A stretch of 64,000 nt of DNA, from assembly GCA_965227515.1 (NCBI GenBank), contig CBDDFZ010000001.1, forward strand, positions 1,056,001-1,120,000, in the 5' to 3' direction. Both the position numbers and the translations under genes were made by a program. Positions 16,172-38,780 of this stretch are shown here, piece after piece. The notes beneath the pieces are model-generated. The model was not told where the DNA came from. It saw only the letters and a program-made list of their open reading frames with translations, and searched no databases. This DNA is from Alphaproteobacteria bacterium. GTDB lineage: Bacteria; Pseudomonadota; Alphaproteobacteria; CALKHQ01. How positions within the stretch are numbered: position 1 is the first letter of the stretch; each line of letters starts with the position of its first letter.

Positions 16172-16190
16172 TGGCTGGCCTTCCTGGATA
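16172..16190 (+). other. left att junction (core TGGCTGG plus attP arm CTGGATA)
   Basis: TGGCTGGCCTTCCTGGATACAGTTCGAACC resembles the tRNA-side TGGCTGGGGGACCTGGATTCGAACC; CTGGATA is the inverted partner of TATCCAG at 38739-38745. Confidence 0.82.
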
Positions 16191-16270
16191 CAGTTCGAAC
16201 CGAGCGTTACCAGGAAATTGTGGGTCTGGGGTCGGGGATTCTGGTCCTAGAGCTAAAGGCGACGGCGTGA
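16172..16270 (+). other. detached 3' segment of the recombinase gene (in frame only after excision)
   Basis: Reads WLAFLDTVRTERYQEIVGLGSGILVLELKATA* from the same TGG CTG codons as the integrated recombinase end. Confidence 0.75.
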
Positions 16271-16489
16271 GCCGGCCGGTAGAGGCCGGGCATTCTACGC
16301 CGTTGGCCCAGTCTGGCGGGCAGAACCCGGCACATGATTGGCTGAGCGTAGTCCAATACCTCGCTGAGACCGATATCAACGGTGAAACCCCAAAGGACGG
16401 CCGGCATCGATGTTGCCGCTGACGTGTCCGATCTCACTACGGGAACCTGCAGGGTGAGGGGAGCACCTGCGGCCAGTTGATCGGCGCTA

Positions 16490-16905
16490 TCAAGGCGAAT
16501 TGCCCAGTTCGCACCCCGAGGTGCCTCGATGTCGTTGGATACGGCCAGTTGAACTCGTGAAAGTCACGGGTCGCTCGATATCTGTGGAGCCGACGTCGCC
16601 AAGCGGGCGCTCGCGCTCGATGGGTACGAGGGGAGCAGACACAGCGTTAAATTCGCCCCTGTCGAGGGCGGTCTTCTGCAACGCGGGATTCGGCAGCGCC
16701 GCTTCGACCGCGGTGCTTGAGGCGTTCCACAGCTCCTGCGCCGCTCTCGTGATGGGCTCGATGTCGTTCGAGCCGTCATTCTGAACAGCGGCCGTGAACC
16801 GCGTAATGGCCTTCTTCAGTGCCGTCAGGGTGCTCGCGCTGTCATCGAGGCTCGGCTTCGCAAGATGGGTGTGCACCTTGATCGCGAGTTTCTCCAGCGC
16901 GGATG
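16490..16905 (-). pseudogene. probable gene remnant near the element's left end
   Basis: Helical-looking open stretch ALEKLAIKVHTHLAKPSLDD...ITRAAQELWNAS... without a good start; no recognised family. Confidence 0.3.
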
Positions 16906-17048
16906 CGCCGCTGCGACCCGCCGGCCGACCCGATGGGCACGATCCGGGAATCGCCGGAAACGGTATCGCTCATGGGACGCCATGCTAAAGCTCGCCGACC
17001 ACGGCGTCGATGGTCAGGCATTCGCCCGGCGCACCGGCATCGACGTCA

Positions 17049-18074
17049 TCACCGTAGGGTAAAGACGGCCTTCTCGGTCTCGCGGTTGTCGAATTTCCGG
17101 AACGCCTCTTCCGCCTCGTCGAGATCGAACAGGTGCGTGGCGAGTTTCGACAGGTCGATGTCGTTCTCCTGCACGGTGCGGACGATGTCGTCGTACTCGG
17201 GCAGGCTGAAGTACCACGACCCGAACACGGTGAGCTGTTTGCGCAGGAGCTGTTCGCTGGTCCGGATCGTGGTTTCGGCCGCCTCGCCGACGAACGCCAC
17301 CTTGCCATAGGGCATGGTCGCATCGAGCGCCATGTTCTGCGCAGCACCATTGCCGGAACAGTCGATGGCGCCGGCAAGCCCCGCCCCACCGGTCAGGTCC
17401 GCCAGTTCCTCCAGCACGGTCGGCGCGGTCGGGTCCACGGTGTGGTCGGCGCCGAGGCCGGCGGCAAACGTACGGCGGTCGGCAATCGGATCGAGCGCGA
17501 TCACGCGCGCCCCCAGCGCCTTGGCCGCGAGCACGCCGGCCGACCCCATCGGCCCCAGGCCCCAGATGCCGATCGTGCCGGCGCCCGATGCGCCCAGCTT
17601 TCGGCAGGCGCTGAACAGGGTGCCGAAGGCATCGGTGGATATGGCGGCGGACACATACGACATCGTGTCCGGCACCCTCAGGCAGTTGCGCTCCGGCACC
17701 ACCAGGTACTCGGCATTGCCGCCGTCGGCGGTGAAGCCCAGGCACTTCCAATGGCCGCACAGGTGCATGTTGCCGGCACGGCACCATGTGCAGGCCCCGC
17801 AGCCGAGCGCGAGGTAGACCGCCACCCTGTCGCCCGCCTTGAAGCGGCTCACACCCTTGCCGACCGCCTCGACGATGCCGGCCGGTTCGTGACCGGTGAC
17901 GCACTTGCCGGCTGCCTCGCCACCCACCACGGCATTGCCGTAGTAGAGGCTGAGATCGCTGCGGCAGATGCACGAGGCCTTCACCGCGATCAGCACGTCG
18001 TTCACGCCGGGCGACGGGTCCGGCACCGAACGTACCTCGACGCGGCGGTCACCCGGCAGAAACACGGCTTTCAT
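17049..18074 (-). CDS. zinc-dependent (MDR) sugar/polyol dehydrogenase
   Basis: CICRSD, GHEPAG, CGACTWCRAGNMHLC, GLGPMG. Confidence 0.93.
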   Translation of the reverse strand: MKAVFLPGDRRVEVRSVPDPSPGVNDVLIAVKASCICRSDLSLYYGNAVVGGEAAGKCVTGHEPAGIVEAVGKGVSRFKAGDRVAVYLALGCGACTWCRAGNMHLCGHWKCLGFTADGGNAEYLVVPERNCLRVPDTMSYVSAAISTDAFGTLFSACRKLGASGAGTIGIWGLGPMGSAGVLAAKALGARVIALDPIADRRTFAAGLGADHTVDPTAPTVLEELADLTGGAGLAGAIDCSGNGAAQNMALDATMPYGKVAFVGEAAETTIRTSEQLLRKQLTVFGSWYFSLPEYDDIVRTVQENDIDLSKLATHLFDLDEAEEAFRKFDNRETEKAVFTLR

Positions 18075-18108
18075 GGCTTCCCTCCCCAGTCCGCCTTTTT
18101 GCGGCGTG

Positions 18109-19551
18109 TTAGTCCGATACCTCGAGGCATTGCTCCATCGGCCGCACGCTGACGGCGAGCGGCGTCTCCATCCGGTCGGCTTGCGCCTCCCAGTCGTCGA
18201 AGCGGCCATAGGCGGCCCAGATGGTGGAGCCCGACGGCAGCTCAGGATACTCGTTTTCGCCATTGGTGCCCCAGTTGACCCAGCCGCTGTCGTAGCGCTG
18301 GACGATCTGCATCCGCGGCGACGGCCGGTTCATGTAGCGCACGAAGGCATAGCCGGTGCGCGGGCTGTATTCGCAGGTCTTCTGGGCGTTGAGCGCGAAG
18401 ATGGTCTGCTGCGGCACCTTGTTCACGTCGACCGCGTCGTCGGTGTAGTGGAAGTGAGTGTGGTCGCGGTCGCTCCAGACGATCTCGTTGGCCGAGCGCC
18501 AGATCTTCTCTACCTCCGCTTTCAGAACATCTTCCGGCAGCGCCTTCTCGACCGCGCAGAACAGGCGCCAGTAATTGTCCCAGTGCCAGGTGGAGGGGTC
18601 CTGCGCCGGATCTATGCCGAGCCGATCCATCGCCTTGGCCAGCGCTTCCGGCTCGCGCTCCTGCAGGTCGCGCAGCCGCGCCAGCAAGATCTCCGCATAC
18701 AGGTCGCCCTCGCGGTAGGCGGTGCCGCCCTTGTGGCGATAGGTGGAGAGCATCAGGTTCGACTTGCCGCTCTCGATCTCGTCGCCGACGGTGATGCGGT
18801 TGGCGCAGCGCCGACCGTCGATCTCGGTGTCGAAGTCGTCGACGAAGTAGGTGCGGGTGAACAGCGGCGTGCCCACATAGAAGCGCCACACGACCTCGAT
18901 CGTCTTGCCGCGCAGTTCGGGGCGCAGGCCCTCCGGCACGTCGACCGTCATCCGGTACTGGCACGTCACCGGACCCTCGCAGATGACCTCGAAGCTAGCG
19001 ACGGCGTGGGCCGGCGGGTTGATCAGCCCATTCTCCGGCGTAAAGAACGGGCCGTAGACGCCGCCGAAGGCATTGGCGTTGCCGGCGATAAGGTTGATGC
19101 GCTGGTCGGTCTGTTCGAAATGGCGGATGCCCCACTTGCTGGCGCCGTCGCCGCGCGCGGTGCCGGTACACAGTTCCAGCACGTAGCAGCCGGTGTCGAG
19201 ACGGCGGAAGCCGTCACCGAGTTTCGGCTCGAGGATGCGGATGCCGTCCGGTTCGCCGTCCATCGGTTCGTCCGACAGCCAGACCGCATAGCGGCGCCGC
19301 GCCTCTCCGGCTGCCAGGGTCACCGGCAGGCACAGGGTCGCCGACACCGGCGCGCCCTCGGCGTCCGCGTGCCACTGCGTCACCTGCGCCGGCACGCGCC
19401 CGCCCTCGGCATCGGTGACGGCGATACCGTCGCGGTGCGGGCGCACCCGGTCGAGCGAAAGAGTGAACTCCACCGGCTCCGTAATCCTACCGCGACCGAG
19501 CGGATCGACCACGTCAACCGGTATGCAGAATTGCGCCAATGGCTCGGTCAT
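18109..19551 (-). CDS. hypothetical protein (480 aa) in sugar operon
   Basis: Long ORF with GGAAGGA RBS, co-oriented between the permease and dehydrogenase; no motif recognised; no signal peptide. Confidence 0.85.
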   Translation of the reverse strand: MTEPLAQFCIPVDVVDPLGRGRITEPVEFTLSLDRVRPHRDGIAVTDAEGGRVPAQVTQWHADAEGAPVSATLCLPVTLAAGEARRRYAVWLSDEPMDGEPDGIRILEPKLGDGFRRLDTGCYVLELCTGTARGDGASKWGIRHFEQTDQRINLIAGNANAFGGVYGPFFTPENGLINPPAHAVASFEVICEGPVTCQYRMTVDVPEGLRPELRGKTIEVVWRFYVGTPLFTRTYFVDDFDTEIDGRRCANRITVGDEIESGKSNLMLSTYRHKGGTAYREGDLYAEILLARLRDLQEREPEALAKAMDRLGIDPAQDPSTWHWDNYWRLFCAVEKALPEDVLKAEVEKIWRSANEIVWSDRDHTHFHYTDDAVDVNKVPQQTIFALNAQKTCEYSPRTGYAFVRYMNRPSPRMQIVQRYDSGWVNWGTNGENEYPELPSGSTIWAAYGRFDDWEAQADRMETPLAVSVRPMEQCLEVSD

Positions 19552-19615
19552 GCCGTTTTCCTTCCGACGTATGTGCTGGCGTGTGCGCTGGCAGGAATGC
19601 GTGCTGACGGGCCGG

Positions 19616-20437
19616 TCATTTAATCGCCCCCATGGTCACGCCGCGCCGGAAGCTGCGCTGGGTAAAGATGTAAAGCAGCAATATCGGCACGAACATGATC
19701 ACGCAGGTCGTGGCGACCAGCTCGTAGTTGAAGGTGAACCGCCCCATGAAATCGATCACCGACACGCTGAGCGGCATCAGGTCCTGCTGGGTGGCGATGA
19801 CCAGCGGCAGGAAGAAGCTGTTCCAGGCCCACAGGAACTCGATCACCGCCAGCGCGCCGATGCCGGGCAGGCTGACCGGCACCATGATGCGGACGAGGAT
19901 CTGCAGGTCGCCGCAGCCATCCAGCCGGGCGGCGTCGATCAGGTCGCGCGGCACGTCGCGCAGGAACGTGGTCATCAGGAAGATGCCGAACGAGAGCCCC
20001 AGCGCGATCAGCGGCAGGATCATGCCGACATAGCTGTTCAAGAGGCCCCAGTCCTTCAGCAGGTTGTAGACCGGGATCAGGATCGAGACCTCGGAGACCA
20101 TCAGCCCGACCAGAACCAGCACGAACAGCACCTGCTTGCCGACGAAGTCGTAGACAGCGAAGGCGAACGCCGCCAGCGACGACAGGATGATCGTCAGGAT
20201 CGTCACCGCGCCGGAGATCAGCAGGCTGTTCAGCACCGCCTGGTAGTAGCCGCGGTCGACCAGGACGAGGCCGTAATTCTGCCAGCGCGGATCCTCGGGG
20301 AGCGCGAACACGCTGGCGATCAGCTCGCCCTGCGACTTCAGCGAGGTGACGAACAGCAGATAGACCGGGGCGATCGAGATCACGGTGAAGACGATCAGGA
20401 CCGTGTTGGCGCCAAACGCGTTGACCAGCCGGTTCAT
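19616..20437 (-). CDS. carbohydrate ABC permease (MalG-like)
   Basis: IDAARLDGCG, FLWAWNSFFLPL, FRRGVTMGAIK; ATGA overlap with the upstream permease. Confidence 0.93.
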   Translation of the reverse strand: MNRLVNAFGANTVLIVFTVISIAPVYLLFVTSLKSQGELIASVFALPEDPRWQNYGLVLVDRGYYQAVLNSLLISGAVTILTIILSSLAAFAFAVYDFVGKQVLFVLVLVGLMVSEVSILIPVYNLLKDWGLLNSYVGMILPLIALGLSFGIFLMTTFLRDVPRDLIDAARLDGCGDLQILVRIMVPVSLPGIGALAVIEFLWAWNSFFLPLVIATQQDLMPLSVSVIDFMGRFTFNYELVATTCVIMFVPILLLYIFTQRSFRRGVTMGAIK

Positions 20438-21318
20438 GCCGCCGCCATCCGCGCGGCGCGCGCGCGCGCGTTCCATAGCAGCAGCACGCTGAGCGCCAGG
20501 ATGATCGCGGTCAGCACTGTGCTCATGGTCGCGGCGTAGTGCACCTGGCCCTGGCGTATGAACAGGTCGAACATGTAGACGGCGACGATCTGGGTCGCGT
20601 TGTCCGGCCCGCCCTTGGTGGCGACGTAGATGATGTCGAAGAATTTCATCGAGCCGATCACTGTGTAGACCAGCACGAACACGATGGTCGGCCGCAGCAA
20701 CGGTATGGTGATCCGCCAGAACTGCTGGATCGGACCGGCGCCGTCGATGCGGGCGGCATCGTAGATTTCCGGGTCGATACCCTGCAGGCCGGCGAGGAAG
20801 ATCAGGGTGCAGAAGCCGTAATAGCCCCAGCTTCCGATCATGTTGACCGCGACCAGCGCGGAGCCGGCGTCGCCCAGCCAGGGGCGCGCCAGGCTGGCCA
20901 GCCCGATCAGATCCAACCCCTGATTCAGGGCGCCGAACGTGGGGTTGTAGATCCAGCCCCAGATGATCGCCGCCATGATCGGCGCGACAGTGGCGGGCAG
21001 GAAAAAGACGGTGGCGTAGAACAGCCGGGCGCGCCGGTGCACCAGCAGGACCGCCAGCACCAGGCCGATGGTCACGGGCACGACGATGCTGAGCGCCACC
21101 CAGATCAGGTTGTGGCCCAGCGCGCGCAGGAACAGGTCGTCGGAGATCAGCCGCTCGTAATTGTCGAGGCCAACGAACTGCACCGCGGATTCGCGGCCGG
21201 CTTCCGGCGTCAGCGTGCTGAGGATGCCATTCTGGGCGATCGGATAGAATATCCACAGGCCCAGGTACAGAAGGGCGGGCGCCAGGAACAGGTACGGCGC
21301 TGGTGTCTTGTTCGGCAT
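20434..21318 (-). CDS. carbohydrate ABC permease (MalF-like)
   Basis: FVGLDNY, YDAARIDGAG, FDIIYVATKGGP. Confidence 0.93.
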   Translation of the reverse strand: MPNKTPAPYLFLAPALLYLGLWIFYPIAQNGILSTLTPEAGRESAVQFVGLDNYERLISDDLFLRALGHNLIWVALSIVVPVTIGLVLAVLLVHRRARLFYATVFFLPATVAPIMAAIIWGWIYNPTFGALNQGLDLIGLASLARPWLGDAGSALVAVNMIGSWGYYGFCTLIFLAGLQGIDPEIYDAARIDGAGPIQQFWRITIPLLRPTIVFVLVYTVIGSMKFFDIIYVATKGGPDNATQIVAVYMFDLFIRQGQVHYAATMSTVLTAIILALSVLLLWNARARAARMAAA

Positions 21319-21391
21319 GTCCGCCTTCGAAATTGCTGGAGGGGCGCGGCCGCGACGTGCGGCCGCGCCGAGAGTGGGCCGGGCGGGAGGG

Positions 21392-22705
21392 CTAGGGCTC
21401 CCACACCTCGCCGGCCTCGGTCGCCGCCTGCATCTGCTCGTCCAGCTTGGCAAGGAACTCCTCGGGCGGCGTGTCGCCGGTGAGCACGCCCTGGATGTCG
21501 TTGTACATCACGAACGTCACCCGCGGCGGCGCCGTGGTGTGGAACGCGTCGACATTCAGGTCCTGCATCGCCGCTCCGGTGGCGAAGGCGTCGGCGACGA
21601 CGCCGGCCATGCCGTAGGTCTCGAAGTCGATCGGCGTCTTCTGGATCGGGATGGTGTAACCCTCGGTGACCCAGGTCTCCAGCCAGCGCGGATCGGACAC
21701 GAAGTCGATGTATTCGGCCGCCAGGTCGGGCACCTTGGAGCCGGCCCAGATGTACCAGGCGGAGCCTTCCGACATGTGCGTTGCCTGGGGCACGCCCTCC
21801 TTGAACTGCGGCATGTAGAAGACGTCCAGCCGCTCCTCGGGCATGTTCTCGATGACCGTGTGGATCACCCAGGTGCCGGTCCAGATCGCGGTCGCCTGGC
21901 CCGAATAGAACTGCAGCAGCGCATCGTTGTAGGACGTGCCGTTGAAGCCGGGACTGAAGCAGTCGTGATCGACCATCTGCAGGATCAGGTCCAGCGCCTC
22001 GCGCGGTTCCGCCGAATTCCAGGGCTGGCGCCCCTGGAGCAAGGCGAGCCCGACATCACGGCCGCCGACGAGGGCGGTCACGTCGGTCCACATGTTCACC
22101 GCCGGCCACAGATCCTGGTTGCCGAGCGAGATCGGGATCAGTCCCGCCTCGCTGGCGGTGTCGCACCATGCCAGCACGTCCTCGAACGACTGCGGCGGCT
22201 CCAGCCCCAGTTCGGCGAAGATTTCGGTGTTATAGTAAACGTACTCGAGATCCTGCTCCCACGGATACGCATAGAGCTTGCCGCGGAAGGAGTTGCGCTC
22301 GATGGCCCACTGCGGCAGCCGATCGAACCAGCCATACTGCTCCGCATAGGGCGTAAGGTCGGTCAGGTAGCCGGCATTGGCGTAGGCGGTGAGCCCGGCA
22401 CCCGACGGCCAGCTATAGAACACGTCCGGCGCCTCGCCCGAGGTCAGCGCCAGCTCGACGGCGTTGCGGATCGGGAACCCGCCGCCGAACACCGAGCGCG
22501 AGAACACCACGCACGGGTGCTCGGCCTGGAATTCCTGATGAATCTTTTCGATTGCCGGTCCCGCAGCCGTCATGCCGTAGTACTCGAACTGATCCCAGAC
22601 GGTCAGGATCTGCCGGTCCTCTTCGGCGCATTCCTGGGCCGATGCGGTAGCGGCGAGGCCGCTGGAAACCGCCATCGCCGCGGCAATCATCGTCCAACGC
22701 TTCAT
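21392..22705 (-). CDS. sugar ABC substrate-binding protein
   Basis: Sec signal MKRWTMIAAAMAVSSGLAATASA; GEAPDVF, GYLTDLT, VYYNTEIFAELGLEPP. Confidence 0.93.
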   Translation of the reverse strand: MKRWTMIAAAMAVSSGLAATASAQECAEEDRQILTVWDQFEYYGMTAAGPAIEKIHQEFQAEHPCVVFSRSVFGGGFPIRNAVELALTSGEAPDVFYSWPSGAGLTAYANAGYLTDLTPYAEQYGWFDRLPQWAIERNSFRGKLYAYPWEQDLEYVYYNTEIFAELGLEPPQSFEDVLAWCDTASEAGLIPISLGNQDLWPAVNMWTDVTALVGGRDVGLALLQGRQPWNSAEPREALDLILQMVDHDCFSPGFNGTSYNDALLQFYSGQATAIWTGTWVIHTVIENMPEERLDVFYMPQFKEGVPQATHMSEGSAWYIWAGSKVPDLAAEYIDFVSDPRWLETWVTEGYTIPIQKTPIDFETYGMAGVVADAFATGAAMQDLNVDAFHTTAPPRVTFVMYNDIQGVLTGDTPPEEFLAKLDEQMQAATEAGEVWEP

Positions 22706-22884
22706 TCGCTTTCCTCCCGGTTGCCGGCCGGTTCGGGCGCTTTGGCGGGCAGCGGCGGCACGACGCCGTGCCGGCGGGCGCCCGTCCGGCAATTCGAACA
22801 GGGTAGGTAGAAGCCCCCGGCCGGGAAACAGCGATCTCGTGCGGATTGGCCAAAAAATATCCAGAATGGATAATTGATTATGTG

Positions 22885-24630
22885 TCAGGAAGTAAGGGCG
22901 TTTTCAGTCCGCTGCTGTACGCGTGCCAGTACACCGCGGGGCGGGTGCCGGTGCAGCAGCATGTCGTGGATTTCCTCGCCCAGGATTTCAATCAGGGTGG
23001 AGATGCCGGGCACCGGCGGCCGGGGCCACATGCGCATGAAACCGCGGCTATGGAAATCGTCGATGGCATCGATCATCGGCGAGCGCGCGCGCACCTCGGC
23101 GTCGCGGCAGACGCTGAGCCTGGCGCAGGCCAGGTTTCCGTTCATACTGAACAGCTTCATCACCTCCGGTGAGGTCAGCGAGCGTATCGCCGTCCAGGCC
23201 GCCTCCACCCGTGCAGGCTCGAGATTAGCCGGAATTGCGAGCGCATAGCCGCCCATCGGCGTGATCGGCCGCCCGCGTGGGCCCACCGGATGCGGCAGAT
23301 ATCCCGTTCGCCCGAAGGCCGCGCAGTTTTCGTTGAGCTCGAAGACCGGCGCCAGCAGCGAGTGGGAATAGGCGAAAGCGGACTCGCCACGGGCGAAGGT
23401 GGTCGCGCGGTCGTACCACGCCATGCCGAGGATGTTCGGCGGCGAGTGGTCCATCAGTTCGCGCATGAACTCGGCCGTTTGCAGCGCCTCGTCGCTCAGG
23501 AACTGCGGCACCGGCCGCCAGTCGCGGTCGACCGCCGCATCGAACCCGCCCTCCGATGCGGGAAGGCTCAGCACGCTCTGGCCGAAGGCGGCCATCATCA
23601 TCATGAAGCTGTGGCCGAGCGGCGTGCCGCGCGCGGCGTTCCACGACACGCCCCACATCCGCTCGCGCGTTCTGCTGACCAGCGGCAAGGCCCGCACTAG
23701 GTCTGCCGCCGTCCGCGGCGGCTCCAGGTCCAGGCCCTCCAGCACATCGGTGCGATAAACCAGCATCTCAGCCGTGGTGACGATGGGTACGCCGTAGCTG
23801 CGGCCCAGGTATGAGGCGCTGGAAAGCGCGTCGGGGTAGAAGTCCTCCAGGTCGGTTCCGGCGGATGCGATCAGGTCGTCGAGCGGCCGCAGCACTCCCT
23901 CCGCGGCCAGTTCGCCGAACCAGGGCAGGTCGCAGGCAAGGATGTCGTAGCGCGAACTCGCGAGCCGGGCGTTCTCCAGTATCTGCAGGCGCAACCGGTC
24001 GATGGATAGCGCGCGGCTGCTGATGGCGGTGCCGAGGATCAGCTCGACCTGACGTTTGAGCGTGTTCATCGCGGTGAATGTCGGGTCGGCGTGCAGCAGC
24101 AGGCGCAGGCCCGAGCCCGCATCCAGCCGGCGGTTGAGCACGACCGGCGGGCCGATGATCCGATCCCGGGCGGTCGCGATGCTGCCCCGATCGGCCGCTC
24201 CGCTCTGGGCGACGAAGCTCGCCAGATGTTCCCGAAGCTGTCTGGCCAGGAGACTCCAGCGCCGGAGCAGTTCGTCGGTCGGGTGCAGCGAGAACGACCG
24301 GCCGCTGCGCGTGCGCGGCCGGACCATCACGAAGTCCGATGCCCGCAACCTGTCGATCAGACGCATGGCCGAGCCGTAGCTCATCCCGGAGGCGGCGACG
24401 GCCGACGACGTGGTGACCACCTGGCCAAGGAAATGGCTGCGCAGCAGGTAGAGGATCATTTTCAGACCATGCGGGCCGCTCCGCAGGCCAAAGGTGTCGG
24501 ACACCTCCACGTCGAGCTGTTCCACAAGGTCGAGCACACGAAGCTGCGCGGGATTACCCGGCAGATGCGCGGGACCGACGTCGCCGCGCTCGTAGGGGCC
24601 TTCTGGCTCACGAACGACCGGATGCTTCAT
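22885..24630 (-). CDS. MarR-like wHTH fused to sugar-binding-protein domain (regulator)
   Basis: N-terminal SSAVAASGMSYGSAMRLIDRL...RPRTRSGRSFSLHPT; C-terminal YDILACDLPW, LVYRTDVL, GGYALAIP; no signal peptide. Confidence 0.8.
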   Translation of the reverse strand: MKHPVVREPEGPYERGDVGPAHLPGNPAQLRVLDLVEQLDVEVSDTFGLRSGPHGLKMILYLLRSHFLGQVVTTSSAVAASGMSYGSAMRLIDRLRASDFVMVRPRTRSGRSFSLHPTDELLRRWSLLARQLREHLASFVAQSGAADRGSIATARDRIIGPPVVLNRRLDAGSGLRLLLHADPTFTAMNTLKRQVELILGTAISSRALSIDRLRLQILENARLASSRYDILACDLPWFGELAAEGVLRPLDDLIASAGTDLEDFYPDALSSASYLGRSYGVPIVTTAEMLVYRTDVLEGLDLEPPRTAADLVRALPLVSRTRERMWGVSWNAARGTPLGHSFMMMMAAFGQSVLSLPASEGGFDAAVDRDWRPVPQFLSDEALQTAEFMRELMDHSPPNILGMAWYDRATTFARGESAFAYSHSLLAPVFELNENCAAFGRTGYLPHPVGPRGRPITPMGGYALAIPANLEPARVEAAWTAIRSLTSPEVMKLFSMNGNLACARLSVCRDAEVRARSPMIDAIDDFHSRGFMRMWPRPPVPGISTLIEILGEEIHDMLLHRHPPRGVLARVQQRTENALTS

Positions 24631-25052: not shown

Positions 25053-25160
25053 GGATACCTCAGCGTCGAGCTCTTCTACCCGGTCGAGTACACGAAGCTG
25101 TACCGGAGCGGCCAAGTGTAGCGCAAGTCCGACGTGATTTGAACTTCGAGGGGCCATTCG
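25053..25160 (-). pseudogene. fragment paralogous to the 5' end of the wHTH-SBP regulator
   Basis: VG...PVQLRVLDRVEELDAEVS versus VG...PAQLRVLDLVEQLDVEVS at about 24500-24580; visible nucleotide similarity. Confidence 0.7.
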
Positions 25161-25258
25161 ACACACGATCTGGTACTCGACTCTTTTCGAGCCACAAGCT
25201 ATGCTGCTCAAAAAGCAGGCAAGGGAGGAAGAAGGATGTAGTGATCGAAGGTGAGGTC

Positions 25259-31562: not shown

Positions 31563-32845
31563 GCAACGAGTATAAGAAGACAGAGTTGGGAAGACTTCCA
31601 AAGAATTGGAAGATTGAACCTGCGCGCAACTTTTCGACAATAAGAACAGGTCCATTTGGAACAGTCCTCAAGGCATCAGAGTATTCAAAGACAAGCGGTG
31701 TACCGCTTATCTCAGTCGGCGAAATTCGCGAAGGATTCCTGGAAATTTCCGACCGCACGCCGCTCGTTTCTGACGTTGTCACGCGACGACTGCCTCAGTA
31801 TGTCTTAAGAGGGGGCGACATCGTTTTTGGAAGAAAAGGTGCAGTTGATAGGTCTTCGTTAATAAGAGAGTGGCAAGCCGGTTGGTTCTTAGGATCTGAT
31901 GGCATATACATGAGGCTGAACATAGATTTACATGAGGCCTATGTAGCATATCAATTTCAGAGCGCGCGTGTCCAAAGTTGGCTTCTTCAGTACGCTCTCG
32001 GCACTACGATGCCGTCGCTTAATCAAAAAATACTTGGCGAAGTTCTTATCCCTCTCCCGGCCACAAGAGCCGAACAGGAAGCTATCGCCGAGGCGTTGGG
32101 CGACGCAGATGCCCTCATCGAATCCCTAGAGCAACTCATCTCCAAAAAGCGCCAGATCAAGCAGGGCGCCATGAAGGTGCTGCTCACCGGCCAGCGGCGC
32201 CTGCCTGGATTTGACGGGAAGTGGAAGGTCAAGACATTTGCGGAGCTGTTCACCTTCAGCGGTGGCTATACCGCTTCACGCGCCCAGCTTTCCGGGGAAG
32301 GACACTGTTACCTGCACTACGGAGACATCCATGGCGCGACGAAGACATGTGTTGATACGAGCGTCGACTATCAGGATATACCTAAGCTCGATATCGATCT
32401 CATGCAGGTCCCGCCTAGCGCTATACTAAAAGACGGCGACGTCGTTTTCGTTGATGCTTCGGAAGATGACGAGGGAACGAGCAAACATATCGTCATTGCA
32501 AACCGCAACAATGTGCCGTTCATAGCTGGCCTTCACACAATTGTTGCCAAGAGTAATACGAACGACCTCGTTCATGAATATCGCCGTTACTGTTTTCAAA
32601 CGACAGCGATCCAACAGCAGTTCCGATTTTACGCGGTTGGAACGAAGGTATCTGGCATCAGCAAGGGCAATATTCCCAAGCTATCCCTTCCGGTCCCCCC
32701 AACTGCCGAACAAATCGCCATTGCCAGCGTCCTGTCCGACATGGATGCCGAGATCGAGGGACTGGAGGCCAAGCTCGTCAAGGCCCGGCTCATCAAGCAA
32801 GGCATGATGCAGGAGCTGCTGACGGGAAGGGTTCGATTGGTATGA
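31553..32845 (+). CDS. hsdS: type I RM specificity subunit
   Basis: Two TRDs, each followed by conserved EQ.AIA..L.D.DA.IE.LE...K.R.IKQG.M..LLTG helices. Confidence 0.95.
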   Translation: MDLSNEYKKTELGRLPKNWKIEPARNFSTIRTGPFGTVLKASEYSKTSGVPLISVGEIREGFLEISDRTPLVSDVVTRRLPQYVLRGGDIVFGRKGAVDRSSLIREWQAGWFLGSDGIYMRLNIDLHEAYVAYQFQSARVQSWLLQYALGTTMPSLNQKILGEVLIPLPATRAEQEAIAEALGDADALIESLEQLISKKRQIKQGAMKVLLTGQRRLPGFDGKWKVKTFAELFTFSGGYTASRAQLSGEGHCYLHYGDIHGATKTCVDTSVDYQDIPKLDIDLMQVPPSAILKDGDVVFVDASEDDEGTSKHIVIANRNNVPFIAGLHTIVAKSNTNDLVHEYRRYCFQTTAIQQQFRFYAVGTKVSGISKGNIPKLSLPVPPTAEQIAIASVLSDMDAEIEGLEAKLVKARLIKQGMMQELLTGRVRLV

Positions 32846-35800
32846 CCCCCATCGGCCAACCCGAACGCGCGACCCAGAACAGGGTGATTGCCCTGTTCCG
32901 CGATGAGCTTGACTACCGGTTTTTGGGCGCCTGGAGCGACCGGGTCGGCAACAGCAACATCGAGGAAGGTCTGCTGTCCGAGTGGCTGACAGGACGCGGA
33001 TATTCGGGCGCGCAGATCAACGCGGCGCTGCACCGGCTTCGTACCGAGGCGAGCAACCACAATAGGACGCTCTACGGCAACAACGCCGCCGTCCACTCCC
33101 TGCTGCGGTACGGCGTTCCGGTCATGACCGAGGCCGGTAAGCCAACCGAGACCGTCCTCCTGATCGACTGGGACGACCCGGTCAGCAACGACTTCGCAAT
33201 CGCCGAGGAGGTGACGCTGTCGGGAGACCTGACGCGCCGACCGGACATCGTGCTCTACGTCAACGGCCTCGCGATTGGCGTGCTGGAGCTGAAGAACAGC
33301 CGCGTCTCGATCGGCGACGGGATCCGGCAGTGCCTCTCCAACCAGAAGCCGGAGTTCCATCAGTGGTTTTTCACCACGGTGCAGTTTATCTTCGCCGGCA
33401 ACGATTCCGAGGGCTTGAAGTACGGCACGACGGGCACTGAGGAAAAGTACTTCCTGAAATGGAAGGAGGACGAAGCGGACGACTCCCGCTTCAAGCTGGA
33501 CAAGTACCTGTTGAAGCTGTGCGAGAAGCACCGGCTGATCGAGCTGATGCACGACTTCATTGTGTTCGACGGCGGGATCAAGAAGCTACCGCGCCCGCAC
33601 CAGTATTTCGGGATCAAGAAGGCACAGGCCTTCGTCGAGCGCCGCGAGGGCGGGATCATCTGGCACACCCAGGGCAGCGGCAAGAGCATCGTCATGGTGC
33701 TGCTGGCCAAGTGGATCCTGGAGACCAACCCCCATGCCCGCGTCGCGGTGATCACCGACCGCGACGAGCTGGACCGGCAGATCGAGCGCGTGTTCCGCGA
33801 CGCCGGCGAGCCGATCAAGCGGACCAGCAGCGGCCGCGACCTGATGCGGCAGCTGGGGGAGGCCACGCCGCGGCTGCTGTGCTCCCTGGTGCACAAGTTT
33901 GGCGGCAGGGGCGTCGACGACTTCGAGGCGTTCATCCGGGACCTGGAGGCCCAGCCGAGCCGGGCCGTGGGCGAGGTCTTCGTATTCGTGGACGAATGCC
34001 ATCGGACCCAGAGCGGCCGGCTGCATCGGGTGATGAAGGCAATGATGCCGGACGCGGTCTTCATCGGCTTCACGGGCACGCCACTATTGCGCAGGGACCG
34101 GCAGACCAGCCTGGAGGTCTTCGGCGGCTACATCGACACCTACAAGTTCAGCGAGGCGGTCGAGGACGAGGTGGTGCTGGACCTCGTGTACGAGGCCCGC
34201 GACATCGACCAGCGCCTTGGCTCCGAGAACAAGATCGACGCCTGGTTCGAGGCGAAGACCAAGGGGCTGAACGACTGGCAGCGGGAGGAGCTGAAGCAGA
34301 AGTGGGGCACGATGCAGGTCGTGCTGAGCTCCCGCTCGCGCATGGACCGGGTCGTGGCCGACATCCTGTTCGACTTCAGCGTCAGGCCGCGCCTGTCCAA
34401 CCAGCGTGGCAATGCGATCCTGGTGGCGTCGAGCATCTACGAGGCTTGCAAGTACTTTGCCCTGTTCCAGAAGACGCCGTTCAAGGGCAAGTGCGCGATC
34501 GTGACGTCATACAATCCCCAGGCGCAGCACGTGACCCAGGAGGAGACCGGCGCCAACAGCGAGACCGACAGGCAGTTCATCTACAACACCTACATCGAGC
34601 TGCTGAAGGGCATCGAAGCCAAGCCCAACATGACGAAGACCGAGGCCTACGAGGAATGGGCCAAGGCGCTGTTCATCAAGGAGCCCGCCAACATGCGGTT
34701 GCTGGTGGTGGTGGACAAGCTGCTGACCGGCTTCGATGCACCGCCCTGCACTTATCTCTACATCGATAAGTCGATGCAGGACCACGGGCTGTTTCAGGCG
34801 ATCTGCCGGACCAACCGACTGGACGGCGACGACAAGGATTTCGGCTTCATCGTCGACTACAAGGCCCTGTTAAAGAAGGTCGAGAACGCGATCGCGGTCT
34901 ACACCTCGGAGCTGGACCGCAGCGCCGGTGGCGCCGACCCCGAAGTATTGCTGCAGGACCGGCTGAAGAAGGGGCGGGAGCGGCTGGACAACGCCATCGA
35001 GGCGCTGGCGCTGCTCTGCGAAGAGGTCGAGCCGCCCAAGGGCGAGCTGGAGCACATCCACTATTTCTGCGGCAACACCGAGATCCCGACCGACCTTCAG
35101 GACAGGGAGCCACTGCGGTCGGCGCTTTACAAGCAGACGGTCGCCCTCGTGCGCGCCTACGCCAATATCGCGGACGAGCTCGAGGCAGCCGGGTACAGCG
35201 GCGCCGACGTTGCTCGCATCAAGCAGCTGCTCGACCAGTACCTCGACATCCGCGAGATCGTCCGCAACGCCAGCGGGGAGACGATCGACCTGAAGGCCTA
35301 CGAGGCCGATATGCGGCATCTGATCGACACCTACATCGAGGCCGACGAGCCCCGGAAGATCTCTCCCTTCGATAACATGAGCCTAGTCGACCTGATCGTG
35401 AAGACAGGCATCGCCGACGCGGTTGCCTCGCAGCTCGGTGGGCTTAGGGGCGACAGGGACGCGATCGCCGAGACAATCGAGAATAACGTGCGCAGCAAGA
35501 TCATCAGGGAGCAGCTGAACGACCCGGCGTTCTACGAATCCATGTCGGCACTGCTCGACGAGATCATCGACGCGCGAAAGGCCAAGGCCATGGCCTACGA
35601 AGAATATCTCCGGCGGATCGGCGAGCTGGCGAAGATGGTTGCCACCGGCCAGGCCGAGGATACGCCGAAGGCGCTCGATACGCCCGGCAAGCGGGCCCTG
35701 TGGAACAACCTCGGCAGGGACGAGGCGCTTGTTCTGAAGATCGATGAAGCCGTCCGGGAGACTCGACCCGAGGGCTGGCGCGGCATCCAGTCTCGCGAGA

Positions 35801-35892
35801 ACGTTATCAAGGCGGCCCTCTATGGCGTGCTGCAGGATCAGGAGGAGGTCGAACGCATCTTCCTCGTGATCAAGGCGCAGAGCGAATACTGA
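32842..35892 (+). CDS. hsdR: type I RM restriction subunit
   Basis: RPDIVLYVNG...ELK nuclease; HTQGSGKS, DECHR, FTGTP, LLTGFDAP, QAICRTNR. Confidence 0.96.
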   Translation: MTPIGQPERATQNRVIALFRDELDYRFLGAWSDRVGNSNIEEGLLSEWLTGRGYSGAQINAALHRLRTEASNHNRTLYGNNAAVHSLLRYGVPVMTEAGKPTETVLLIDWDDPVSNDFAIAEEVTLSGDLTRRPDIVLYVNGLAIGVLELKNSRVSIGDGIRQCLSNQKPEFHQWFFTTVQFIFAGNDSEGLKYGTTGTEEKYFLKWKEDEADDSRFKLDKYLLKLCEKHRLIELMHDFIVFDGGIKKLPRPHQYFGIKKAQAFVERREGGIIWHTQGSGKSIVMVLLAKWILETNPHARVAVITDRDELDRQIERVFRDAGEPIKRTSSGRDLMRQLGEATPRLLCSLVHKFGGRGVDDFEAFIRDLEAQPSRAVGEVFVFVDECHRTQSGRLHRVMKAMMPDAVFIGFTGTPLLRRDRQTSLEVFGGYIDTYKFSEAVEDEVVLDLVYEARDIDQRLGSENKIDAWFEAKTKGLNDWQREELKQKWGTMQVVLSSRSRMDRVVADILFDFSVRPRLSNQRGNAILVASSIYEACKYFALFQKTPFKGKCAIVTSYNPQAQHVTQEETGANSETDRQFIYNTYIELLKGIEAKPNMTKTEAYEEWAKALFIKEPANMRLLVVVDKLLTGFDAPPCTYLYIDKSMQDHGLFQAICRTNRLDGDDKDFGFIVDYKALLKKVENAIAVYTSELDRSAGGADPEVLLQDRLKKGRERLDNAIEALALLCEEVEPPKGELEHIHYFCGNTEIPTDLQDREPLRSALYKQTVALVRAYANIADELEAAGYSGADVARIKQLLDQYLDIREIVRNASGETIDLKAYEADMRHLIDTYIEADEPRKISPFDNMSLVDLIVKTGIADAVASQLGGLRGDRDAIAETIENNVRSKIIREQLNDPAFYESMSALLDEIIDARKAKAMAYEEYLRRIGELAKMVATGQAEDTPKALDTPGKRALWNNLGRDEALVLKIDEAVRETRPEGWRGIQSRENVIKAALYGVLQDQEEVERIFLVIKAQSEY

Positions 35893-36608
35893 TGGTCACC
35901 CAGCTCGACCTTGGCGGCATCGCGGTCGACGTGGTGTTCAAGGATATCAAGAACGTCCATTTGAGCGTGCACCCCCCGACCGGGCGTGTGCGCATCTCGG
36001 CGCCGACCCGGACCAACCTGGACGCCATCCGCGCCTTCGCGATTTCGAAGCTCGGCTGGATCAAGCAGCAGCAAGGCAAGCTGCGGCAGCAGGAGCGCGA
36101 AAGCCCGCGCGAATACCTCGAGCGCGAAAGTCACCATGTGTGGGGCCGGCGCTACCTGATGGAGATCAGGGAGGCCGAGGCCCCGCCACTGGTCGAGCTG
36201 ACGCATCGCAAGTTGGTTCTTCGCGTCCGTCCCGGCACCGATGAGGAGGGCAGAGAAGCGGTCGTCGCCGAGTGGTACCGCGGCCAACTCAAGCAAGCCG
36301 CCCGGGCCTGGATCATCAGGTGGGAGCCGCGTCTGGGCGTTAAGGTCCGGCGGCTGTTCGTGCAGCGCATGAAGACGAAGTGGGGCGGCTGCAACCCTGA
36401 GGCCGGAAGCATCCGCCTTAACTCGGAGCTCGCCAAGAAGCCTCCTGAATGCGGGGAGTACGTCCTGGTGCATGAAATGGCCCACCTGATCGAGCGGCAT
36501 CACAATGATCGGTTCGTCGGCCTTATGGATCGACACCTGCCGCAGTGGCGGGCCCACCGCGATGCCCTGAACGCCGCGCCGCTGGCGCACGAGAGTTGGA
36601 CCTACTGA
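35892..36608 (+). CDS. YgjP/DUF45 (M48-like) metal-dependent hydrolase
   Basis: MKTKWGGCN, YVLVHEMAHL...HNDRF; TGATG overlap with hsdR. Confidence 0.9.
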   Translation: MVTQLDLGGIAVDVVFKDIKNVHLSVHPPTGRVRISAPTRTNLDAIRAFAISKLGWIKQQQGKLRQQERESPREYLERESHHVWGRRYLMEIREAEAPPLVELTHRKLVLRVRPGTDEEGREAVVAEWYRGQLKQAARAWIIRWEPRLGVKVRRLFVQRMKTKWGGCNPEAGSIRLNSELAKKPPECGEYVLVHEMAHLIERHHNDRFVGLMDRHLPQWRAHRDALNAAPLAHESWTY

Positions 36609-36664
36609 TCGAACCGACGCGCCACTTGCTACGTAGCGCGTATCGGCCTATATGGACGGAATGA

Positions 36665-36946
36665 ATGATCCTCTCGTTCAGATGCAAGGAGACGGAACGC
36701 ATCTGGCAGGGTCTTGCCAGCCGGAAGTTCCCGGCCGCCATCCAGGATCGCGCGCTGCGCAAGCTGCGTCAGCTGGACGCGTCGCGGACCATGGACGACC
36801 TGCGCAACCCGCCGGGCAATCGGCTCGAGGCCCTGAGAGCGGACCGCGCAGGCCAATGGAGCATCCGCATCAACGACCAGTGGCGCATCTGCTTCGTCTG
36901 GCGGGAGGGCGACGCGAGCGACGTCGAGATCGTCGACTACCATTGA
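36665..36946 (+). CDS. higB: HigB toxin (RelE/ParE family)
   Basis: DLRNPPGNRLEAL...SIRINDQWRICF...VEIVDYH. Confidence 0.95.
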   Translation: MILSFRCKETERIWQGLASRKFPAAIQDRALRKLRQLDASRTMDDLRNPPGNRLEALRADRAGQWSIRINDQWRICFVWREGDASDVEIVDYH

Positions 36947-36974
36947 AGGCCGTAGTGAACCGAAAGATGTAGCG

Positions 36975-37277
36975 ATGGGCCAGTTGCGCAACCCACATCC
37001 GGGGGAGATCCTCCGGCATGAGTTCCTCGACGAGATCGGCATGAGCCAGAACGCGCTTGCCCAGGCGATCGGCGTGCCGGGCAACCGCATCCACGCCATC
37101 GTCAACGGCACCCGCTCCGTGACGGCGGAGACCGACCTGCGACTGTGCCGGTTCTTCGGGTTGTCAGAAGGCTATTTCCTACGCCTGCAGAACGCCCACG
37201 ACACCATGGCGGCCAAACGGCGCATAGGAGCCGAGGTCGAACAGATTGCGCCCTACAAGCCCCAGGAGGCGGCCTGA
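36975..37277 (+). CDS. higA: HigA antitoxin
   Basis: HPGEILRHEFL...SQNALAQAIGV...IVNGTRSVTAETDLRL. Confidence 0.95.
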   Translation: MGQLRNPHPGEILRHEFLDEIGMSQNALAQAIGVPGNRIHAIVNGTRSVTAETDLRLCRFFGLSEGYFLRLQNAHDTMAAKRRIGAEVEQIAPYKPQEAA

Positions 37278-37280
37278 GCC

Positions 37281-38780
37281 ATGAAAGCCATCATCCTCGC
37301 GCGCGTCTCAACCAAGGAGCAGGAAGAGGGCCATTCGATCGGCGCCCAGCGTCAGCGGCTCGCCGACCATTGCGCCCGCAAGGGCCTGGATGTGATCCGA
37401 ACCTTCGAGTTGATCGAGTCGTCCACCAAGGGCGAGCGGCGCAAATTCATGGAAATGATTGAGTTTGCCAAAGGCCAAGGCGAAACGGTCGCAATCGTTG
37501 CAGATGCCGTCGACCGGTTCCAGCGCAGTTTCCGCGAGTCCGTGTTGATCGACGAGCTGATCCGCAGGGAGCAGGTCGAACTGCACTTCTATCGAGAGAA
37601 CATGGTCATCGGGAAGGACGCAACGTCGACCGACATCATGCGCTGGGACTTTTCGGTCATGGGTGCCAAGTCCTACACCCTGAATCTATCCGAGAACGTG
37701 CGGCGCAGCCTGGAGTACAAGCGCCGCAACGGCGAATGGAGCGGCAAGGCGCCGCTTGGTTACCTGAACGCCCGCGATGCCGACAACCGCAGCACGCTGG
37801 TGCATGACCCAGAGCGTGCCTTCCTTGTCCGAATGCTGTTCGAGGATTATGCCAAAGGCTGCTTCTCGATCAGCGGCGACCTTGTCCGAATGACCCGGGA
37901 ATGGGGCCTGACCAACAAGACACGCAAGGGCGGCTTTTTGACGGGCGGTCAGATCCATACGATCCTGACGAACCCGTTCTACCACGGCGAGATGTGCATC
38001 AAGGGGAAGCTCTACCCTCACAAATACGAGCCGTTGATCACCAAGGACCTGTTCGACCGCTGCGCGGCAGTGCGCGAGGGCGCGGCGCGCCCGACGGCGA
38101 CGCGGTACTCAGAGAAGCCCTTTGTGTTTCGCGGGCTGCTGAAGTGCGCCATCTCGGGACGGACTGTCACCAGCGACCTGAAGAAGGGCCGGCACGTCTA
38201 CCTGATCTGTCGCGACCCCGACGATCCTGAACGCAAACTCTACGTGCCCGAAGGCGACGTTCTGGACCAGGTGATGGAGAGCTTCCGGTCGATTCAGATC
38301 CCGCCGGCGCTGCTCGAGGCATTGCTGACGCACATGAAGGCGAGCCACGAGGCCGAGAACCGATTCCACAAGGACGCCATCACCGGCCTGCGGGGCGAGC
38401 ACGACAAGATCCGCGATCGGCTCGACGCGCTGCTTGATATGCGGCTCGACCAGAGTATTACGCAGGCTGAGTACGACAAAAAAGCGCGTGACCTGAAAGA
38501 CCGCAAGGCTGAGATTGCGGCGCGGATCGAGCAGCACCAGGACGGCGAGTTGACCTTCCGCACCACGCTGGAAAGCTTGATATCTCTGGCCTCACGCGCG
38601 GCCGACCTGTTTGAGCGTTCGAACATCGACCAAAAGCGGCAGTTGCTCGCTTTCGTGTTTTCGAACCTGCGGCTCAGGGGCAGAAAGCTAGAGTTTTCAA
38701 TGCGCTCGCCCTTCGACCTGATGGTCGGCCGGGCCGATTATCCAGATTGGCTGGGGGACCTGGATTCGAACCAGGACTAA
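37281..38780 (+). CDS. large serine recombinase (integrase); last 10 codons antisense to tRNA-Gln
   Basis: ARVSTKEQ (catalytic Ser), DRFQRS, APLGY, ILTNPFYHG recombinase domain, degenerate Zn ribbon, coiled coil. Confidence 0.95.
   Translation: MKAIILARVSTKEQEEGHSIGAQRQRLADHCARKGLDVIRTFELIESSTKGERRKFMEMIEFAKGQGETVAIVADAVDRFQRSFRESVLIDELIRREQVELHFYRENMVIGKDATSTDIMRWDFSVMGAKSYTLNLSENVRRSLEYKRRNGEWSGKAPLGYLNARDADNRSTLVHDPERAFLVRMLFEDYAKGCFSISGDLVRMTREWGLTNKTRKGGFLTGGQIHTILTNPFYHGEMCIKGKLYPHKYEPLITKDLFDRCAAVREGAARPTATRYSEKPFVFRGLLKCAISGRTVTSDLKKGRHVYLICRDPDDPERKLYVPEGDVLDQVMESFRSIQIPPALLEALLTHMKASHEAENRFHKDAITGLRGEHDKIRDRLDALLDMRLDQSITQAEYDKKARDLKDRKAEIAARIEQHQDGELTFRTTLESLISLASRAADLFERSNIDQKRQLLAFVFSNLRLRGRKLEFSMRSPFDLMVGRADYPDWLGDLDSNQD

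Follow-up and report, generated by a model that had tools for sequence, protein, structure and literature searches.

The 64,000-nucleotide stretch of alphaproteobacterial DNA analysed here (GenBank assembly GCA_965227515.1, contig CBDDFZ010000001.1, positions 1,056,001 to 1,120,000; hereafter, the window) likely carries, between positions 16172 and 38754, an integrated copy of a site-specific integrative element inserted at the 3' end of a tRNA gene. The right end of this element is formed by the gene of a large serine recombinase (LSR; 37281-38780, plus strand, 499 amino acids), which runs into an intact tRNA-Gln(CTG) gene on the minus strand (38748-38821), the sole tRNA gene detected in the window by ARAGORN. 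The LSR contains the Resolvase (PF00239, residues 3-153, E-value 5e-17) and Recombinase (PF07508, residues 177-266, E-value 2.5e-8) domains and matches the integrase family phrog_95 (1.3e-65); the zinc ribbon (PF13408) was detected with 17.9 bits (E-value 0.0042), below the 25.3-bit cut-off, and a coiled coil was recognized by eye. The last 11 codons of the gene (38748-38780) are the complement of the tRNA 3' end. At the left end of the element, positions 16172-16270 (plus strand) extend the LSR frame, without interruption, by 32 codons (WLAFLDTVRTERYQEIV...) and a stop codon, and this stretch is homologous to the C-terminus of the LSR of a related locus, L025, from an alphaproteobacterial metagenome-assembled genome (MAG). 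The window contains a single such tail and a single LSR gene.

Both ends carry the heptanucleotide TGGCTGG (16172-16178 and 38748-38754, the putative attL and attR cores), that is, the displaced CCA, discriminator and acceptor end of the tRNA-Gln. By itself, this repeat is at chance level: the window contains 20 copies of the heptanucleotide where 11.7 would be expected, and 4 of 100 shuffled sequences reached 20. In a sensitive search of the window, no copy of the tRNA region that exceeds the heptanucleotide was detected. When the ends are joined, TATCCAG (38739-38745), located in the P arm that precedes the right core, and CTGGATA (16184-16190), located in the arm that follows the left core, are mirror-symmetric about T38752/G38753, with the centre of symmetry between positions 38752 and 38753. 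The element measures 22,583 bp with both cores and 22,576 bp as a circle.

The two ends could be compared with L025, which was retrieved with the Rep protein of the element (see below), independently of the att sequence. In a translated search, this contig matches window positions 16154-16228 exactly where its own LSR gene ends. At the nucleotide level, window positions 16172-16206 are identical to L025 in 33 of 35 positions, and in L025 the LSR 3' end runs straight into this sequence; the 100 nt before position 38748 and the 100 nt before the L025 tail share 82 identical positions. The controls, namely the host-side arms of the window, yielded 13 of 60 and 20 of 35 identities with L025. Because both sides of the joint match L025 and the controls are low, the two ends of the window element correspond to one continuous attP sequence in L025, which indicates that both proposed ends are correct. 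An exact search of metagenome contigs with the first 20 nt of the tail produced 23 contigs, in 3 of which (L107, L114 and L115, the last more distant) an LSR 3' end precedes the tail. In about 14, the tail is preceded by unrelated DNA, as at attL (in one of these, L112, orf60, SpoVG and Rep lie 2.2 kb past the tail), and about 6 are chance matches in unrelated genes, both of these figures being counts by eye. The attP-derived arm after the core at 16172 is identical to L107 in 34 and to L114 in all 35 of 35 nt; because the search that retrieved these two contigs used the tail 20-mer, independent evidence comes only from their left sides, which share 82 and 81 of the 100 nt before position 38748, respectively.

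These alignments indicate that the insertion cuts the LSR reading frame such that tRNA-derived codons replace its last 32. Natural recombination products, in the form of attL, attR and attP-like joints, are seen in the sequences, and the short cores without a long direct repeat fit the LSR type. An earlier note on this DNA, made from sequence alone, had described a 22.6-kb element with a serine integrase and had placed its ends at the two TGGCTGG copies, which are present as described; the continuous L025 sequence supports both ends and the size. The 7-bp inverted repeat that it saw around a TG in the core after joining of the ends was confirmed from the window sequence, and its explanation of the missing tRNA duplication by serine integrase att sites agrees with the short common core, with a palindromic attP centred in the last tRNA bases and with the lack of any long duplication in the window.

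Gene content of the element

The genes from position 25259 to position 38780 form a single co-oriented run, and no capsid, terminase, tail, type IV secretion system (T4SS), coupling protein or MOB family was matched among the scanned open reading frames (ORFs) of the window; on both points, including the lack of phage structural, T4SS and classical MOB genes, the description in the earlier note holds. Primase, helicase, Zot-like, AlpA-type and coat genes were not found in the element either, and neither PHROG nor Pfam searches matched genes for phage satellite packaging or helper interference in it.

The hallmark of the element is the Rep protein (27972-29129, plus strand), which is probably a distant rolling-circle initiator related to the gene-II (G2P) family of inoviruses. 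Rep has more than 1000 homologs at E ≤ 0.001, all of them unnamed and none with a Pfam domain; Y59 and Y188 are invariant in 69 Rep sequences. Several comparisons point to the gene-II family. Weak matches to PF05144 were obtained for 2 of 26 and 3 of 69 Rep relatives (best E-value 2.1e-5), and 25-61 % of the members of the nearest ESM Atlas clusters (score 0.96-0.97) contain PF05144. A Foldseek search of BFVD with the Rep model (pLDDT 82.6) retrieved two unnamed proteins (1.4e-10 and 3.8e-7) and, in third place, an Inoviridae protein (1.9e-5), with TM-scores of 0.29-0.50. Against this assignment, the window Rep itself matched no Pfam family, PF05144 not being detected even at E ≤ 5; a Rep profile had no match among PDB sequences, Foldseek found none in the PDB at E ≤ 0.001, and hhalign comparison with two true PF05144 proteins (from genomes G074 and G070) gave probabilities of 0.1-0.7 %. 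Thus, the rolling-circle Rep of the earlier note stands as probable by virtue of the affinities of the relatives, the Atlas clusters and the Foldseek matches, but not by any Pfam or hhalign match of the window protein itself. Rep also had no match in PADLOC, and no relative of it was found in 50,697 phage records and 72,556 plasmids; none of 24 pattern matches in IMG/VR was confirmed.

The start of rep is overlapped by the end of a gene for a SpoVG-like protein (27701-28015, plus strand; PF04026, E-value 4.6e-9, 36.7 bits against a cut-off of 29.6 bits). Its assignment to the SpoVG septation-regulator equivalog was rejected (27.4 bits against a cut-off of 108). Prediction of a complex between Rep and the SpoVG-like protein scored 0.00, compared with a mark of 0.32, and is evidence neither way. 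Upstream of the SpoVG-like gene are the small conserved ORF orf60 (27538-27720, plus strand), without a family match, and genes A and B. The C-terminal ~115 amino acids of the gene B product (26418-27446, plus strand) are conserved upstream of SpoVG in 18 loci; all top Foldseek matches of its model (pLDDT 87.6) are to winged-helix DNA-binding domains of the OmpR/PhoB/ToxR type (E-values 0.06-0.4), so that, judging from the predicted structure, gene B likely encodes a DNA-binding regulator or a site-binding protein. Gene A (25259-26488, plus strand), present in 7 of the 81 loci of the family, matches an unnamed family, phrog_37634 (1.3e-13), and its Atlas neighbours are unnamed clusters; searches of Pfam, NCBIfam and PADLOC gave no match. 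A 19-nt motif, TATCCCC.CCA.GACGACG (~27489-27507), is conserved upstream of orf60 in the three closest elements (the window, L025 and L027) and could be a promoter, an operator or part of an origin. An inverted repeat before orf60 (z = -1.77) is not conserved in the relatives.

Cargo occupies two places. Between rep and the LSR gene, all on the plus strand, are a type I restriction-modification (R-M) system (29142-35892; hsdM, 29142-31562; hsdS, 31553-32845; hsdR, 32842-35892), a YgjP-like metallopeptidase (35892-36608; 1.8e-57) and a HigBA toxin-antitoxin pair (36665-37277; HigB, 36665-36946, PF05015, 2.6e-18; HigA, 36975-37277, TIGR02607, 1e-26), which is located directly before the LSR gene in about 20 loci of the family. 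The left cargo, between attL and gene A, is encoded on the minus strand. It starts with a hypothetical ORF without a family match (16490-16876) and a Zn-dependent alcohol dehydrogenase (17049-18263; ADH_N, 2.9e-27; ADH_zinc_N, 8.4e-27), continues with a sugar-type ABC uptake block (18109-22792) that consists of a 480-amino-acid ORF without assignment, two permeases (19616-21256 and 20434-21453) and a solute-binding protein (21392-22792), and ends with a 581-amino-acid protein with a C-terminal solute-binding domain (22885-24630). Recombination scars follow (24757-25190): a 5'-truncated and frameshifted SnoaL-like pseudogene (24757-25051), the full-length homolog of which is present in genome G001 (L021, 6905-7447), and a fragment (~25053-25190) that duplicates the 5' end of the gene for the 581-amino-acid protein (repeat D3, 80 % over 55 nt).

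The GC content drops to 0.53-0.65 only between 25 and 39 kb and is 0.63-0.68 between 16 and 25 kb, as in the flanks, which fits a separate origin of the left cargo. Furthermore, window positions 17041-24618 are 83 % identical to a region of G001, a genome from another genus (C2, 308527-316091), where the flanks are different; between the window and G001, identity is 66-73 % for the core genes on the right side of the tRNA and 100 % for the tRNA-Gln genes. In G001, homologs of the left flank and of the cargo lie dispersed. The left cargo looks like a separate and fairly recent acquisition from a related lineage. Outside the element, on its left, are genes for a histidine kinase, a response regulator and an acidic repeat protein. 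Within the ORF at 15595-16116, which matches no Pfam family, seven overlapping copies of a repeat with a period of 9-15 nt (15586-15693) encode an acidic Asp/Glu run.

Related elements across phyla

Relatives of Rep were searched in one genome per species (alignment A1), and 80 loci were retrieved, 81 with the window. A SpoVG-like gene lies directly upstream of rep in 66 of the 81 loci, and an LSR gene is encoded downstream of rep, on the same strand, in 70. The SpoVG-Rep-LSR synteny, for which the earlier note had suggested a search elsewhere, recurs in dozens of genomes from many phyla, with hosts in Alphaproteobacteria, Patescibacteria, Omnitrophota, Dehalococcoidia and Vampirovibrio, among others; this recurrence supports the suggestion made there that the class may be under-described. 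Within the class to which the window belongs, Rep was found in 2 of 401 genomes, its own included. We found no published description of a tRNA-targeting SpoVG-Rep-LSR family in the full-text literature, although such elements may be listed in the supplementary tables of the tycheposon, TIGER/Islander and LSR-mining papers and, without a name, in large island databases. As far as we found, then, the window element belongs to a widespread and apparently undescribed family.

In 44 of the 70 loci with an LSR gene, ARAGORN places a tRNA gene on the opposite strand that abuts the LSR end. The targets are tRNA genes for Gln, Asn, Pro, Arg, Val, Gly, Glu and Lys. A strict pattern, in which the 6 nt that start the tRNA end are followed in frame by W-x7-R-[T/N/S], detected a copy of these 6 nt with the displaced tail beside it upstream in 20 of these 44 loci; the tails of the remaining loci may have diverged further or be located outside the 10-kb flanks. 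Measured from the first T, the common cores of the 20 attL/attR pairs reach 6-9 nt rightward and, in most cases, 0-1 nt leftward, the short-core signature of serine recombinases, and the alignments place the crossover of the family within the CCA, the discriminator and the first acceptor bases. In 34 of 62 full-length LSR frames, the sequence continues into T-arm codons, as in the window, and L066 and L067 retain the full tail; the other 26 frames fall outside these groups (25 'other', 1 cut by a contig end), many of them stopping, by eye, 2-4 codons past the Trp.

The elements elsewhere range from 3.6 to 13.8 kb, which makes the 22.6-kb window copy the largest. The smallest (L037, 9232-12864; 3.6 kb), in tRNA-Gln(TTG) of a Rickettsiales MAG, encodes little beyond Rep and LSR. 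Cargo resides either in the Rep-LSR interval or in the interval between attL and the core, and in both L062 and L063 the latter contains a type I R-M system; cargo to the left of gene A is normal for the family because L063 has its restriction system there. In two loci, two or three LSR tails are arranged in series upstream of one element (L030: 6289, 7468 and 8460; L089: 424, 2119 and 5524), which suggests repeated insertion at one tRNA gene and decay of the older copies.

The tRNA-Gln regions of G001, G002, G003, G012 and G009 have nothing in common with the window to the left of the tRNA gene, except for an LSR remnant of 45 nt in G003 and an unrelated LSR in G009. The remnant (L014, 3351-3405; G003:C123) consists of ~45 nt of the 3' end of this LSR gene, with 11 identical residues, that adjoin tRNA-Gln, a decayed copy at the same site. 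The serine recombinase of G009, a genome from another family of the class (L017, 6116-6760), shares 25 % identity, is encoded ~1.1 kb from tRNA-Gln and belongs to a genome in which no Rep was found. In a metagenome contig (L121), a tail (3510) and a tRNA-Gln(CTG) gene (4732-4805) are 1.2 kb apart, and this locus looks like a nearly emptied element.

In the window, numbering from the first T of the core places CTGGAT at nt 13-18 both in the tRNA gene (38760-38765) and in the tail (16184-16189), with its mirror image, ATCCAG, at 38740-45 on the opposite side of the centre; the T-loop box TCGAAC is located at nt 19-24 in the tRNA gene (38766-38771) and at nt 24-29 in the tail (16195-16200). In 19 of the 20 att pairs, the outer box is at nt 25 in P' and at nt 20 in the tRNA, a shift of 5, although two points count against reading too much into this figure: the register was counted on sites whose pattern demands Arg at codon 9 and is thus partly built in, and the 20 loci include close kin (L053/L060/L075, L069/L086/L089 and L070/L071). 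The Arg codon at the outer box is CGA in 16 of the 20 pairs. The element half-site (P') would be a copy of the tRNA half-site (B'), with CTGGAT in the same register and TCGAAC 5 bp further out. Rutherford and colleagues reportedly showed in 2013 that LSR attP half-sites have the zinc-ribbon-domain motif ~5 bp further from the centre than attB half-sites, with the recombinase-domain motif at an unchanged position, and by analogy the pattern seen here fits this geometry.

A second conserved feature resides within the LSR gene. The heptanucleotide GTATTAC (38455-38461, plus strand), which occurs twice in the window, is encoded in codons assigned by eye to the tip of the LSR coiled coil. Five LSR fragments start at the same nucleotide, directly 5' of ATTAC, with unrelated DNA upstream in each: L107 (5441) and L114 (2270) from metagenomes, L026 (18400) from an alphaproteobacterium, L089 (5233) from Peribacteria and L098 (7012) from Curtissbacteria. 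In L026, LSR codons 1-391 are missing, and the sequence that precedes the L089 fragment is, right up to the joint, colinear with a gene inside L088, a related element. Altogether, 5 of 6 internally truncated LSR copies start at ATTAC, the fragment in L087 beginning elsewhere. The site could be placed in 38 of 62 LSR genes, with GC contents of 0.30-0.66, and is conserved in nearly all of them (G, 36 of 38; T, 36; ATT, 38, never ATC or ATA; A, 36; C, 37). Because GTATTAC is near-invariant over this range of GC contents and ATT is never replaced by ATC or ATA, the constraint acts on the DNA, beyond the protein. Illegitimate recombination at a rolling-circle nick site joins a fixed end to varied DNA, as is known for M13 and pC194. 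A break of homology near the nick site of staphylococcal plasmids and hairpin-less origins have been described in the cited parts of the literature (PMC5037232). Speaking against a nick site, the folds of four loci (z-scores from -0.33 to 0.70) revealed no conserved hairpin around GTATTAC. On balance, we regard the chances that GT/ATTAC is the nick site of Rep as roughly even. If it is, the recurrent truncated copies record illegitimate recombination of the rolling-circle type in natural genomes.

Proposed integration and excision, and alternative explanations

Taken together, these findings make it quite likely that a single site-specific integrative element occupies 16172-38754 in integrated form, its core consisting of the SpoVG-like gene, rep and the LSR gene at the right end and its cargo lying in two places, between attL and gene A (alcohol dehydrogenase, ABC uptake and scars) and between Rep and LSR (type I R-M, YgjP and HigBA). 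Sequence comparison places the attP of the family within the last ~33 LSR codons, and integration recombines it with the last 6-9 nt of the tRNA gene, which comprise the CCA, the discriminator and the beginning of the acceptor stem. As judged from the sequenced joints, the tRNA gene emerges intact as the attB target that supplies the B' arm, the LSR tail, which doubles as the P' half-site, comes to lie at the far left end, and the resident LSR ends in tRNA-encoded codons. In the reverse reaction, the LSR would recombine attL with attR, which would free a circle of 22,576 bp and make the LSR gene whole again; rolling-circle replication would follow once Rep had nicked this circle, perhaps at GT/ATTAC in the LSR gene.

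Several observations weigh against this interpretation. Neither an empty site nor a circle junction of this strain was seen. The nearest genomes compared belong to another genus and are non-syntenic to the left of the tRNA gene, so that an empty attB is not visible there, and an exact metagenome search with the 22 nt of the host-side arm to the left of the core gave no match. Among 14 runs, one contains the whole stretch, and four were compared over 36500-40500; all are assembly contigs, which are blind to rare excision. The contig of the strain itself bridges attR and represents the integrated form alone, without an alternative junction, and the other runs contain low-depth identical pieces or related tRNA flanks. 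L025 is cut by a contig end, and L107 and L114 hold truncated LSR fragments and no whole genes. No recombination directionality factor was identified in the element. Finally, the left 9 kb, with their host-like GC content and ordinary metabolic genes, may be a late and possibly disabling acquisition. A metagenome contig from one of the runs (X3, record 24) shares 96 % identity with the right flank and has its first base precisely at the last base of the tRNA (38748), and the strains in that sample may differ beyond this point.

In one alternative, the window copy would be a fixed, immobile one, with a resident LSR that is deprived of its native tail and an enlargement by a 9-kb host-like insertion with scars. 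We give this alternative appreciable weight while considering it doubtful. The window copy is by far the largest, it contains pseudogene scars, its strain shows no alternative junction in assembly contigs, and decayed copies exist elsewhere (the ~45 nt of LSR at tRNA-Gln in G003 and L026, which lacks LSR codons 1-391). However, all core genes are open and of full length, both att sites are intact, the exchange of the tail is the normal integrated state throughout the family rather than a lesion, and contigs would not reveal rare excision.

Under another explanation, which appears unlikely, the integrative element would be an integrative mobilizable element (IME), in which Rep acts mainly as a relaxase of the kind found as MobT/Rep_trans in Firmicute elements, which nicks an origin of transfer (oriT), the circle being transferred by a co-resident conjugative system. 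According to the cited parts of a review of streptococcal IMEs, these pair serine integrases with relaxases related to rolling-circle initiators (PMC5704250), and the element has its own integrase and att-bounded ends and no T4SS genes of its own; the constant end at GT/ATTAC would be as compatible with nicking at an oriT as with a replication origin. Yet the serine-integrase IMEs in those parts of the review disrupt dispensable genes rather than tRNA genes (PMC5704250). The family described here is common in small-genome MAGs of Patescibacteria, Omnitrophota and Dehalococcoidia. Moreover, the element encodes no detectable coupling protein and matches no MOB family.

Quite improbable, in our estimate, is that the element is a satellite of filamentous or other phages, with Rep making single-stranded circles that a helper virus packages into filaments, the length of which tolerates variable cargo. 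The TLC and RS1 satellites of cholera bacteria are said to have gene-II-type Rep proteins and no coat genes; similarly, the sole detectable affinities of Rep are to the inovirus gene-II family, structural genes are missing from the element, and elements range from 3.6 to 22.6 kb. Against this stand the failure to find any Rep relative in the 50,697 phage records or to confirm any of the 24 in IMG/VR, the lack of terminase, coat, Zot-like and AlpA-type genes in the element, and the fact that no helper was identified.

Very improbable is a mobile unit that comprises only the low-GC 13.6 kb (~25.2-38.75 kb), with 16.2-25.2 kb chromosomal and the match at 16172 a relic or chance, as might be argued from the GC step near 25 kb, the housekeeping-type genes at 16.3-24.6 kb, the gene scars at 24.6-25.2 kb and the chance-level heptamer, given that there is no tail, LSR fragment or tRNA-end repeat near 25 kb, that the tail at 16172 is an intact 32-codon frame with 33 of 35 nt identical to L025, that attL-core cargo is also found in L062 and L063, and that the alcohol dehydrogenase-ABC block is located elsewhere, between other flanks, in G001. 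A left end at ~25.2 kb, considered on the basis of GC and gene content, was dropped given the L025 match and the lone tail at 16172.

Returning to the element with its LSR, Rep and SpoVG-like core, we also entertain, tentatively and as a scenario that is rather less probable than not in its full extent, that it is an 'integrate and roll' replicon in which a single integrase gene holds both attP and the Rep nick site. In this scenario, attP would reproduce a tRNA 3' end whose T-loop box has moved 5 bp outward, the exchange of the C-terminus would be a direction switch that needs no separate directionality factor, nicking within the LSR gene would tie replication to the recombinase, and the element would spread across phyla without transfer genes, for example by uptake of single-stranded circles. 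Were this true, the free and integrated forms of the LSR would be different enzymes, and the route of spread would be new for islands.

Relation to known systems

For the insertion of large DNA, serine integrases serve as the principal tools, and the family provides dozens of natural LSR-attP-attB sets for at least eight tRNA species, with sites that are predictable from sequence alone; the half-site rule, together with the swap of the C-terminus, could bear on the control of direction. The family further appears to serve as a vehicle of restriction-modification, toxin-antitoxin and metabolic genes across phyla, among them candidate phyla, the mobile elements of which are poorly known; it also offers a context in which the function of an unannotated Rep family with more than 1000 members, and of SpoVG-like genes outside Firmicutes, can be tested.

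Among known elements, streptococcal IMEs are similar in being small att-bounded islands with one serine recombinase, very short repeats, a protein resembling rolling-circle initiators, toxin-antitoxin or R-M cargo and no conjugation pore; in the parts of the review cited above, their serine-integrase members insert into and disrupt dispensable protein genes, and named families, among them Rep_trans and Rep_2, account for their initiators (PMC5704250). The family described here differs in targeting tRNA 3' ends, in having attP inside the integrase gene, in a Rep without a Pfam family and in hosts from many phyla. The tycheposons of Prochlorococcus resemble it in tandem accretion beside tRNA genes, as in L030 and L089; according to the cited portion of their description, 910 of 937 encode a tyrosine recombinase from a lineage of their own, replication relies on genes for primases, helicases and polymerases, and partial tRNA copies are left behind (bioRxiv 10.1101/2020.12.28.424599). 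The elements of the present family instead have an LSR, a G2P-like Rep, a SpoVG-like gene and a repeat of only 6-9 nt; the window element, with an LSR in place of a tyrosine recombinase and no primase or helicase found, was not classed as a tycheposon.

In tRNA islands of tyrosine integrases, as outlined in the cited sections on Islander, attP likewise carries a piece that restores the tRNA gene, and the island lies between the tRNA gene and its displaced end; serine integrases are stated there not to be known to target tRNA genes (PMC4383910). Here, a family of serine integrases targets tRNA genes systematically (44 of 70 loci by ARAGORN). In the cited part of a 2026 survey, serine integrases account for less than 1 % of att-delimited islands (bioRxiv 10.64898/2026.01.13.699239). 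The pSAM2-type elements of actinomycetes are documented in the cited passages to integrate in tRNA genes (PMC2440964). The window element matched no tyrosine integrase, Xis, FtsK-like or spread genes. The pSAM2-type elements replicate by rolling circle after excision and carry a tyrosine integrase with Xis, an FtsK-like transfer protein and spread genes. In SSV1-type archaeal integrases and in the integration-dependent immunity of some mycobacteriophages, both of which involve tyrosine integrases, attP is located in a gene of the element, and the protein differs between the integrated and free forms. With these gene-splitting systems the present family shares the placement of attP within a gene, but here the LSR loses only its last 32 residues.

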